Of a stretch of DNA of 64,000 nt, positions 53,052 to 56,057 are shown in pieces. The notes under the pieces are model-generated. The model saw only the letters and a list, made by a program, of their open reading frames with translations. It had not been told where the DNA came from and ran no database searches. The stretch comes from Escherichia coli (lineage in GTDB: Bacteria; Pseudomonadota; Gammaproteobacteria; Enterobacterales; Enterobacteriaceae), in NCBI RefSeq assembly GCF_044324785.1, contig NZ_CP172127.1; one strand, given 5' to 3'. Position 1 is the first letter of the stretch; each line of letters opens with the position of its first letter. The position numbers were made by a program, and so were the translations under genes.

Positions 53052-53455
53052 TTAGAGTTTTTTCCAGTATCGATTTTCTGATTCGTTTGGGGGTAACCCA
53101 CCGTTATATTCGTGCGGTCTTAGTGCGCTGTAATATCCAACGATATAGTCCGTTATGGCGTGAGCTGCCTCGCTGAAGCTTACGTAACCCACCACCGGCA
53201 TCCATTCGTTCTTCAGACTCCTGAAGAAGCGTTCCATTGGGCTGTTATCCCAGCAGTTTCCGCGCCGGCTCATACTCTGCCTGATCTGGTATCGCCACAA
53301 TAACTGCTGGAACTGCCTGCTCGTATAATGACTGCCCTGTCGCTGTGGAACATCACCCCACCGGGCTTACCACGGGTTTCCTATGCCATTTCCAGCGCTT
53401 TCATGGTGAGCCTGCTGTCCGGCGAGAACGACATGGCCCAGCCCACTGGTTTTCT
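53052..53455 (-). pseudogene. IS3-family transposase OrfB remnant (C-terminal fragment with upstream frame disruptions)
   Basis: Intact C-terminal 82 aa ([25 protein letters not shown]...[20 protein letters not shown]); upstream region shows broken reading frames; left boundary is where the IS66-like end begins. Confidence 0.6.
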
Positions 53456-53640
53456 GTAAGCGTCGTCTGAGTACCGTCTGGTCCCGAATCCAGGATCCTG
53501 TAACTTAAGCACCCACTTATTTTGCAGGTGGACACCTCATGCGCACCAAAGAACGACTCCCCCGGAAACGCTATTCTCCTGAATTTAAAATGGAACTGGT
53601 CAGGCTGGCCCTTGAACAAGATGTCACGAACGGTGCAATA

Positions 53641-55366
53641 GTGGTTCTTCCGCAACTTGGGTGGAAGAAAATGGATGAAACTTTCTGGTGAACAAGGATC
53701 TAAGCTGTTTTAAGTTATGGGCAACGCAATGCACTCTCTTAAGACACTTCTACAGTTACCTTGCGGATGGCGATGCAGTCGACAAATTATTAGCTCTGAC
53801 GGTATCACCCTCCATCTCCACGGAAAACGCAAAACAGCACAATGTCCTGAATGCTCTAAGCGTAGCGACTCTGTTCATAGTTCTCGTCGGCGCCGGATAC
53901 AGCATCTACCCTGCTCCGGGCAGACGCTATGGCTTGTATTTTCCGTCCGCCACTGGTACTGCCGTAACCCTGTTTGTTCACGAAAAATTTTTGCCGAGTC
54001 GCTTGCTCCCTTCGCCGGTTCACACCAGCAGTCTTCACAGGCGTTACAAAATTTACAACGTCAACTGGGATTAATAGCCGGAGGTGAGGCTGGAAAACGG
54101 GCTGCAACGGCAGTGGGTCTCCGTTGCAGTGCAGATACTCTTCTTCGCAGGGTTATCAATACCCCGGGGACGAAACAGTCAGGCGCGCCTCATGTCGGTA
54201 TTGATGAGTGGGCGTGGCATCGGGGCCACCGTTACGGTAAGTTAATCGTCAATCTTGATACTCACCGTCCCCTCGTCCTGCTTCCCGGTCGTGATCAGCG
54301 TACGCTGGCGACCTGGTTCAGAAAATATCCGGAAATACAGGTTGTCTCGCGTGATCGCAGTGGAGTCTATGCAACAGCAGCACGTGAAGGTGCACCTCAG
54401 GCCAGACAGGTGGCCGATCGATGGCACCTGCTAAAAAATATTGGCGATGCGCTTGAACGAATGATGTACAGACATATACCTCTGATACGTCTTGTTGCCA
54501 GTGAGTTGTCACTAAAGAAATCACCTGAGCCAGAACTGTCTGTGCCTGCAGTATCGCTCCGTCGTCCGGAACGCCTTAAACAGCAAACCCGCAAAAAACG
54601 GCATCAGCGTTGGACAGAGGTTATGGCCCTGCATAACAAGGGATGTAGTTTCAGGGAAATATCCCGTATTACAGGCCTGTCGCGTGTGACAGTCAGTCGC
54701 TGGGTGCGTTCAGGAACATTCCCTGAAATGTCAACCCGACCTCCAAAGCGAGGGCTTCTGGACCCATGGAGGGAGTGGTTAAAAGAGCAACGAGAAAGCG
54801 GTAATTATAACGCCAGCCGGATATGGCGGGAAATGGTGGCCCGGGGGTTTACAGGCAGTGAAACCATCGTCAGGGATGCTGTTGCCAAATGGCGTAAAGG
54901 CTGGATCCCACCGGTTACTACTGCCGCCAGACTTCCTTCAGTGTCCCGGGTAAGCCGGTGGTTGATGCCCTGGAGAATAATCAGGGGGGAAGAAAATTAT
55001 GCTTCCCGATTTATTAGTCTGATGTGTGAAAAAGAACCGGAGCTGAAAATAGCGCAGCAACTGGTACTCGAGTTCTACCGTATTCTGAAAACCCAAAATA
55101 AATCACAGCTTAGCAGCTGGTTCACTCGAGTCCACGAAAGCGGCTCAGCAGAACTTCGGCGCGTGGCTGCGGGGATGGAAGCTGATGCTGCGGCTATATG
55201 TGAGGCAATCAGCAGTCGCTGGAGTAATGGTGTTGTCGAAGGTCATGTAAATCGCCTGAAGATGTTGAAACGCCAGATGTATGGTCGAGCCGGATTTGAA
55301 CTGCTCAGGCAGAGGGTCATGAGTCCACTGGCATGAAAATCTCCACCCAAGTTGCGGAAGAACCAC
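53641..55366 (+). mobile_element. ISL3-family insertion sequence nested inside the IS66-like orfA
   Basis: 25-bp perfect terminal inverted repeats GTGGTTCTTCCGCAACTTGGGTGGA at 53641-53665 and, inverted, at 55342-55366; encloses a single transposase gene. Confidence 0.75.
53717..55336 (+). CDS. ISL3-family transposase
   Basis: 539 aa; N-terminal zinc-finger-like region (CGWRC...CPEC); ISL3-like architecture. The second Met at 53729 is an alternative start. Confidence 0.8.
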   Translation: MGNAMHSLKTLLQLPCGWRCSRQIISSDGITLHLHGKRKTAQCPECSKRSDSVHSSRRRRIQHLPCSGQTLWLVFSVRHWYCRNPVCSRKIFAESLAPFAGSHQQSSQALQNLQRQLGLIAGGEAGKRAATAVGLRCSADTLLRRVINTPGTKQSGAPHVGIDEWAWHRGHRYGKLIVNLDTHRPLVLLPGRDQRTLATWFRKYPEIQVVSRDRSGVYATAAREGAPQARQVADRWHLLKNIGDALERMMYRHIPLIRLVASELSLKKSPEPELSVPAVSLRRPERLKQQTRKKRHQRWTEVMALHNKGCSFREISRITGLSRVTVSRWVRSGTFPEMSTRPPKRGLLDPWREWLKEQRESGNYNASRIWREMVARGFTGSETIVRDAVAKWRKGWIPPVTTAARLPSVSRVSRWLMPWRIIRGEENYASRFISLMCEKEPELKIAQQLVLEFYRILKTQNKSQLSSWFTRVHESGSAELRRVAAGMEADAAAICEAISSRWSNGVVEGHVNRLKMLKRQMYGRAGFELLRQRVMSPLA

Positions 55367-55467
55367 TTTTCATCCGTCGTTGACACAAGAGGGCAGTATC
55401 GCTGCTCTGGCCCGTCAACATGACGTCAACGATAATCTGCTCTTTAAATGGATAAGGCTCTAGCAAC

Positions 55468-55695
55468 GTGAAGGGCGGGCGGGTCTGTCGACCCCGAAAA
55501 AATGCATCGTCGCTTCCTACCCTGATACCCGTGCAACTTCAGGCGGAGCCTTCTCTCCCGGAATTCGAACCACTATCCTGTTCACCTCCCACTGCCTGCC
55601 ACATAAAATGTCGGGGCGGAGAAATAACGCTGACCTCTCCCTCAGTTGAGCTTATGAGCACTGTCCTGCGCGAACTGATGCGGGGGTCTGTATGA
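55468..55695 (+). pseudogene. IS66-family OrfA C-terminal fragment
   Basis: 75-aa ORF ending ...LMSTVLRELMRGSV, whose stop overlaps the orfB start in the typical IS66 arrangement. Confidence 0.5.
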
Positions 55696-56057
55696 TAAAT
55701 CTTCCCGCAGGCACAAAAATCTGGCTGGTTGCCGGTATCACCGATATGCGCAACGGCTTCAATGGTCTCGCCGCAAAGGTGCAGACAGCGTTGAAAGATG
55801 ACCCGATGTCCGGCCACGTCTTCATCTTCCGGGGCCGCAGCGGCAGTCAGGTCAAACTGCTGTGGTCCACCGGCGACGGACTGTGCCTGCTGACCAAAAG
55901 GCTGGAGCGTGGCCGCTTCGCCTGGCCGTCGACCCGCGATGGCAAAGTGTTCCTGATGCCGGCGCAGCTGGCGATGCTGATGGAAGGTATCGACTGGCGA
56001 CAGCCAAAGCGGTTACTGACGTCCCTGACATGTTGTAGCCCAGGTCTTCTTCGTTGA
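55692..56057 (+). CDS. IS66-family accessory protein TnpB (OrfB)
   Basis: MINLPAGTKIWLVAGITDMRNGFNGLAAKVQTALKDDPMSGHVFIFRGRSGSQVKLLWSTGDGLCLLTKRLERGRFAWP matches the IS66 OrfB family as I recall it. Confidence 0.8.
   Translation: MINLPAGTKIWLVAGITDMRNGFNGLAAKVQTALKDDPMSGHVFIFRGRSGSQVKLLWSTGDGLCLLTKRLERGRFAWPSTRDGKVFLMPAQLAMLMEGIDWRQPKRLLTSLTCCSPGLLR

Follow-up and report, generated by a model that had tools for sequence, protein, structure and literature searches.

A 64,000-nt window of the Escherichia coli chromosome (contig NZ_CP172127.1), whose positions 43900-64000 are 100% identical to strain SMS-3-5, contains three insertion sequences (IS), whole or in part, set one inside another: a fragment of IS911 (IS3 family), an IS66-family element and an ISL3-family element resembling ISEc38. 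This nest is made of two nested insertions plus one deletion, and very probably represents a fossil stack of transpositions followed by a deletion, carried on an island of ~32.6 kb at serW. An original prediction, made by reading the sequence without database searches, had proposed the same families and the same order of nesting. Both were supported by the junctions, where an intact end meets a broken one, and by a CAAGA target duplication. The searches for the galactan cluster and for an ancestral intermediate covered 5,426 complete genomes.

The inner insertion could be reconstructed to the base. The uninterrupted IS66 tnpA gene of strain 1105 (L006) reads CTTGAACAAGAGGGCAG, with a single CAAGA, and the corresponding junctions of the window read ...GAACAAGA / TGTCACG...GTTGACA / CAAGAGGG..., slashes marking the limits of the ISL3 element. 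Removal of 53622-55385 plus one CAAGA restored the strain 1105 tnpA sequence exactly, and with it an 815-bp left portion of the IS66 element. The intact ISL3 ends and the duplication lying inside tnpA thus confirmed that an ISL3 element splits the IS66-like first gene, as predicted. Its transposase gene matches NF033550 at 365.7 bits (cut-off 180) over profile positions 1-368 of 370. Compared with a copy labelled 'ISL3-like element ISEc38 family' by the NCBI Prokaryotic Genome Annotation Pipeline (PGAP), the element is 96% identical in nucleotide sequence and its transposase 96% identical in amino acids, ungapped and of the same 539-aa length (22 differences); since this is a PGAP-labelled copy and not the ISfinder reference, naming stops at 'ISEc38-like' or isoform. 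With both ends and a full-length open reading frame (ORF), the ISL3 copy is a complete element, so that the description of all three pieces as remnants does not hold for it. Of the three, it is the only one that looks capable of moving, and it also offers homology through which other ISEc38 copies can recombine with it.

Where this element ends had been judged differently in the original prediction, which implicitly took a pair of perfect 25-bp inverted repeats as its termini. The repeats exist: the 25-mer GTGGTTCTTCCGCAACTTGGGTGGA occurs exactly twice, at 53641-53665 (plus strand) and 55342-55366 (minus strand), with no occurrence expected by chance, and the perfect stretch in fact measures 26 nt. 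If the element were bounded by them, it would have generated an 8-bp duplication, and the ~19 bp beyond either repeat would have to belong to the target. The perfection of the 25-mer, its restriction to these two sites and the resemblance of the motif GGTTCTTCCGCAA to the GGCTCTT-type ends usual in ISL3 elements all speak for such a reading. However, the 25-mer is only the inner part of 44-nt terminal repeats, 84% complementary to each other (53622-53665 and 55342-55385), and six other contexts of ISEc38-type copies share sequence out to TGTCA...TGACA, corresponding to window positions 53622 and 55385. These copies are ~96% identical and occupy unrelated surroundings (between IS4 and ISEc8, Tn3-like, two plasmids, a ggt'/php locus), and the outer 19 bp are conserved in them. 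Furthermore, the 8 bp beside the 25-mers are not direct repeats, the empty IS66 site is recovered only by removing 53622-55385 and one CAAGA, and all three clean insertions show 5-bp duplications at the outer tips: CAAGA in the window, ACAAC and GCTCC on plasmids. Termini at the 25-bp repeats are therefore highly unlikely, the empty-site comparison alone refuting them, and we place the true tips 19 bp outside the 25-mer on either side. This part of the original prediction thus fails on a criterion that was stated along with it.

The outer insertion is that of the IS66-family element into IS911. Homology to all IS911/ISEc52 matches, which were found in 4,028 genomes, ends at 53455, and an IS66 terminal repeat starts from GTAAGCG at the next base. 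This heptamer is not above chance frequency (4 found, 6.4 expected), but two independent IS66 copies align from base 53456 exactly, that of strain 1105 with 97.9% identity and that of strain ES4 (L007) with 91.4%. The IS3-family fragment does end, as had been noticed, where the IS66-like terminus begins. An intact IS66 end beside an internally broken IS911 shows that IS66 was the inserting element and IS911 its target; the opposite order, IS911 inserted into IS66, was rejected because it is the IS66 end that is whole.

Identification of the IS66 piece drew on both of its genes. The tnpB product matches NF033819 at 116.6 bits (cut-off 50), and TnpA, once reconstructed, could be aligned to its annotated IS66 counterpart in strain ES4. 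The 50-aa split N-terminus of TnpA, too short for the purpose, gave no NCBIfam match, and was resolved by aligning the reconstructed gene to the copies of strains 1105 and ES4. Beyond the ISL3 insertion, tnpA carries a TGG>TAG change and a 4-bp GGGC insertion. The tnpB gene is full length but for a 1-bp deletion four codons ahead of its stop; the resulting frameshift lets the ORF run on to 56057, and the last 18 nt of this apparent tnpB are antisense sequence of a TOTE primase gene. The prediction that the element lacks its main transposase was correct, since tblastn found no tnpC in the 64-kb window; tnpC is present in the IS66 relatives of strains 1105 and ES4. The intact relative of strain ES4 measures 2433 bp and is flanked by an 8-bp target duplication, CATTCTCT, seen in that relative only, as the right end of the window copy is deleted. 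The window IS66 is thus a deleted member of the family and not an element of a different kind. PGAP assigns this piece no specific IS name.

The outermost piece was likewise correctly recognized as an IS3-family orfB fragment. An 82-aa ORF (53052-53300, minus strand) corresponds to the C-terminal part of NF033516, the IS3 transposase model (E 4.6e-23), and the DNA of 53022-53455 is 98.2% identical to a PGAP-annotated IS911 of BL21. The fragment does not start at 53052, as first proposed, but at the IS911 tip at 53022, where the terminal repeat TGAAGTGG... is found and the tip sequence TGAAGTGGTCAACAAAAACTGGCCACC agrees with that of the BL21 IS911. A single tip is present. Decay is visible at three places, where a T has been gained (53058), one base has been lost (53340) and a TGG>TAG change has occurred (53382); the fragment is a PGAP pseudogene in SMS-3-5. 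It is immobile, because orfA, the frameshift site and the left inverted repeat (IRL) are missing. IS911 normally links orfA to orfB by a programmed -1 frameshift and makes a 3-bp target duplication; the window has neither that part of the element nor a second junction.

On its right side the nest is closed by a junction of another type. IS66 homology ends at 56039, one base past the tnpB stop, so that the IS66 identity of this piece was upheld and its proposed limit at 56057 was not. Homology to the interior of a TOTE primase gene starts at 56029-56040. The intact homologue of this gene in strain M70 (L008) has 788 codons, of which the window copy retains approximately the first 300. No element terminus is present in either partner and microhomology at the junction is patchy (CATGnnGTA), which identifies a deletion and not an insertion. 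With this deletion the IS66 element lost tnpC and its right end, IS911 its remaining two-thirds, and the TOTE gene 485 codons from its 3′ part.

These observations can be arranged into a history of five steps. A copy of IS911 would have lain with its right inverted repeat (IRR) tip 928 bp upstream of wzm, a gene of a Klebsiella-type galactan cluster. An IS66-family element, ~2.43 kb when intact, would next have inserted into IS911 orfB, its left end abutting IS911 at approximately position 815. An ISEc38-like ISL3 element would then have entered codon 28 of the IS66 tnpA, duplicating 5 bp (CAAGA). An illegitimate deletion involving no transposon end would have removed the IS66 tnpC and right end, the rest of IS911 and island DNA up to approximately codon 300 of the TOTE primase gene. 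Finally, the disabled IS911 and IS66 pieces would have gathered nonsense and frameshift mutations. This history builds on the observed identities and exact ends of the elements, the target duplication, the empty site and the types of the junctions; the timing of the ISL3 insertion relative to the deletion is one that we infer. Stacking may reflect neutral retention, as an insertion into an already dead IS would cost the host nothing, with occasional homologous recombination between IS copies.

The nest is not confined to one genome. A stretch of 3401 bp that contains it (52900-56300) recurs with 100% identity in 46 complete genomes, whose sources include humans, poultry, pigs, a pangolin and water. 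The galactan cluster, searched by its right end, was found in 47 genomes and the nest in 46, essentially the same set, so that cluster and nest effectively form one haplotype. Both the IS911/IS66 and the left IS66/ISL3 junctions are shared by 72 genomes, and ~25 of these carry them in a second context, exemplified by strains GPEC60-12-649 (L016), YJ3 (L017) and UMNF18 (L018). There, genes for a methyltransferase, a helicase and a GIY-YIG nuclease are followed by the IS911 fragment, the IS66 left end and ISEc38, and then by ggt'-php. Second-context copies are identical to window positions 53157-53970 and ~4% divergent beyond, placing a crossover between 53623 and 53971. Such a pattern indicates a hybrid ISEc38, formed by recombination with a resident copy at the ggt' locus. 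In UMNF18 the second-context structure is also cut by IS100.

Several observations weigh against the proposed history or leave parts of it loose. To the left of the IS911 tip, the two contexts of the nest have different sequence, which implies at least one further, unexplained rearrangement there. With a single IS911/IS66 junction left, an adjacent deletion mediated by IS66 would look the same as a simple IS66 insertion flanked by an 8-bp duplication. A query with the ISL3 element removed found no uninterrupted IS66 at this site in any of the complete genomes, the best uninterrupted match being a different IS66 copy (97.3%). Nor was the galactan cluster seen apart from the nest in the complete genomes (47 and 46 genomes, effectively one haplotype), and no intermediate state was found. 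Lastly, the ISL3 copy is unique to the locus at at least 99% identity, with no sign of movement from here.

Two other explanations of the nest as a whole were weighed against the stack of insertions and deletion. The first is an assembly artefact, in which repeats would have been collapsed or mis-joined. Repeat-rich regions are classic sites of misassembly and all three IS families are multicopy in E. coli. Nevertheless, an artefact, a doubt raised with the original prediction, has practically no chance of being correct: identical structures in 46 complete genomes, from differing laboratories and hosts, exclude it, the junctions bear molecular signatures (an intact end, a target duplication, shared decay mutations), and by self-comparison each of the three elements occurs only once in the window, leaving no further copy there to cause a mis-join.

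In the second explanation, the nest would mark an active hotspot of recombination, as originally predicted, or of insertion, or the ISs would form a composite transposon that mobilised the polysaccharide cluster. The cluster is indeed bracketed by IS elements, the IS911 fragment on one side and an IS903B copy lacking a 9-bp duplication on the other. IS903B truncates hsdM on one side, and on the other the terminal glycosyltransferase family 2 (GT2) gene ends within it, taking its final ~10 codons from IS903B sequence. Its outer neighbour varies among carriers (~8.9 kb of additional IS-rich DNA in SMS-3-5; IS1, IS3 or DUF5983 in others). No complete genome contained the exact hsdM-IS903B junction of the window in a single piece. 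The nest itself has gained an element in one strain, LA3 (L015), where a 1331-bp IS3-family element (by annotation) sits in the IS66 tnpA remnant with a CCTCC duplication at 55585-55589; its ends resemble those of IS2. Occurrence of the nest in a second genomic context also fits a hotspot. Against this, all 46 carriers have exactly the same nest (100% identity), variation lies at the IS903B boundary of the cluster, cluster and nest co-occur (47 and 46 genomes), and the three ISEc38 target pentamers have no motif in common. Neutral retention of insertions in dead DNA would explain the stacking without any site preference. A composite transposon formed by IS903B and IS911 was rejected, as these belong to different families and the IS911 fragment has no second end, so that none is possible now. 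We therefore consider an active hotspot or composite transposon unlikely and keep to the fossil stack. There is nonetheless some real support for a more limited role, in which the ISs of this region act as insertion sinks and as portable homology.

Comparison of ISEc38-type copies revealed that their outer tips are not identical: TGTCACGAACGGTGCAA... (alpha; 53622-53640 in the window) and TGTCAACGACGGATGAA... (beta; 55367-55385). Tips were compared across the window, L003, L004, L012 and L016. Five copies, that of the window among them, show the order alpha...beta; the copy at the ggt' locus and a 74%-identical relative on a Klebsiella plasmid show beta...alpha, and one hybrid copy alpha...alpha. 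The swapped tips suggest an inversion of the core through recombination at the near-perfect inner repeats. ISL3 elements normally generate an 8-bp target duplication and have GGCTCTT-type ends, as described in ISfinder and in reviews. A tentative and rather doubtful generalization is that the ISEc38 group transposes with a non-canonical geometry, involving a subterminal ISL3-like repeat, TGTCA...TGACA tips 19-21 bp further out, a 5-bp duplication and tips in either arrangement. ISL3 membership rests on the transposase, and the duplication length is a variant trait. The literature on ISEc38 yielded only lists from mobile-element finders and nothing on its ends or duplication. If this geometry is true and unrecorded in ISfinder, it would provide a small correction to the way a widespread element is delimited by annotation pipelines. 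The ISEc38-type transposase is also longer than the ISL3 profile (539 aa against 370 positions), and the extra segment, residues ~303-394, matches models of IS21, IS630 and IS1 transposases in their N-terminal helix-turn-helix region.

All pieces of the nest are already annotated in RefSeq, under the labels 'DDE-type integrase pseudogene', 'hypothetical protein' and 'transposase'. Two small RefSeq coding sequences, the 50-aa 'hypothetical protein' and a 27-aa 'transposase', are fragments of the split IS66 tnpA. The value of the present analysis lies mainly in annotation hygiene, as it supplies exact ends for three IS pieces and indicates that ISEc38-type elements should be delimited by their outer TGTCA tips with a 5-bp duplication.

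Table. Coordinates in the 64,000-nt window of the IS nest, its parts and the features that frame it.
Feature	Position	Strand	Basis or remark
tRNA-Ser(GGA) gene (serW), intact	31490-31577		One end of the island
IS903B, 1057 bp	43153-44209		18-bp repeats; no 9-bp target duplication
IS911 fragment, last 434 bp (IRR tip and 3′ part of orfB)	53022-53455	minus	Identity to IS911; NF033516
IS66-family left end (terminal repeat from GTAAGCG, leader, tnpA codons 1-28)	53456-53621	plus	ATG at 53539
CAAGA target-site duplication (5 bp), left copy	53617-53621		Empty site in strain 1105
ISEc38-like ISL3 element, complete, 1764 bp	53622-55385	plus	Homology limits in other contexts; inverted repeat
ISL3 transposase gene, 539 aa, uninterrupted	53717-55336	plus	NF033550; annotated intact, WP_012311606.1
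CAAGA target-site duplication (5 bp), right copy	55386-55390		
Rest of IS66 tnpA	55391-55695	plus	Alignment and translation against strains 1105 and ES4
IS66 tnpB	55692-56036	plus	NF033819 match; alignments
Deletion junction, IS66 / TOTE primase interior	56029-56040		Pairwise alignments to strains 1105 (L006) and M70 (L008)
TOTE archaeo-eukaryotic primase gene, truncated and frameshifted	56040-56926	minus	SMS-3-5 PGAP annotation; PrimPol match; intact homologue in strain M70
P4-type integrase gene	62831-~64039		Far end of the island, beside att repeat and clpA

The limits of the island are given by serW at one end and, at the other, by the integrase gene and a 14-nt repeat of the serW 3′ end, CCCCCTCACCGCCA, located just past the window edge (L001 20301-20314) beside the integrase gene and clpA. 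The island thus spans ~32.6 kb and includes the IS nest. To the right of the nest lie the truncated TOTE primase gene, an inovirus-Gp2-like gene and the integrase module. The TOTE gene, putatively of a conflict-type defence system, is dead here, being both truncated and frameshifted; the inovirus-type Gp2-like gene that comes next (57081-57644; the two genes together occupy 56040-57644, minus strand) is intact. The part of the island proximal to the tRNA gene is an Ag43/GTPase/toxin-antitoxin module.

To the left of the nest is the six-gene polysaccharide cluster (44179-52093, minus strand), a Klebsiella-type D-galactan I (O2a) set comprising wzm, wzt, wbbM, glf and two or three glycosyltransferase genes. 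One product, of 630 aa, scores 1081 bits against 6U4B, a solved structure of Klebsiella WbbM. The cluster, carried by 47 of the 5,426 genomes, resides on the serW island, away from the locus where O-antigen genes usually lie; in ~250 other E. coli genomes the match is limited to the JUMPstart stretch. An RfaH ops element, GGCGGTAGCGTG, lies upstream of the cluster at 52391-52402 (minus strand). It was found by direct pattern search, and an Rfam scan of 50000-58000 at gathering thresholds returned no RNA family, JUMPstart included. A promoter and terminator scan of 52000-56200 gave fewer promoter-like sites than in shuffled sequences and was for that reason uninformative. Because the nest leaves intact the 928-bp upstream region with its ops/JUMPstart stretch, native regulation of the cluster is probably undisturbed. 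A second exact copy of GGCGGTAGCGTG is present at 6386-6397 (minus strand), upstream of an operon (259-6148, minus strand) that encodes an EAL phosphodiesterase-like protein, a GGDEF protein and a cellulose-synthase-like glycosyltransferase.

Each of the three elements is of a known family, and their arrangement is biologically ordinary. The IS911 fragment resembles IS911 in its 98.2% identity over 434 bp, its TGAAGTGG... terminal repeat and its orfB C-terminus, and differs from the full element in comprising the IRR-proximal third only, without orfA, frameshift site or IRL, and in bearing a frameshift, a nonsense codon and an extra base. The IS66 piece is like the E. coli elements organized as tnpA-tnpB-tnpC, with a GTAAGCG repeat, tnpA and tnpB overlapping as ATGA and a TnpB above the cut-off. 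Unlike an intact IS66, it keeps 815 of ~2433 bp, with tnpA hit three times, tnpB frameshifted, and tnpC and the right end deleted. The ISL3 copy resembles a PGAP-labelled ISEc38-family copy in sequence (96% in both nucleotides and amino acids), transposase length and ends. The ISEc38 group departs from the ISL3 norm in its 5-bp instead of 8-bp duplication and in an ISL3-like motif set 19-21 bp inside the tips. Taken as a whole, the nest resembles the nested IS 'graveyards' at the edges of genomic islands, with one IS inside another, truncation by deletion, pseudogenisation and acquired cargo on a tRNA-linked island; it shows no substantive difference from them and is a typical example.

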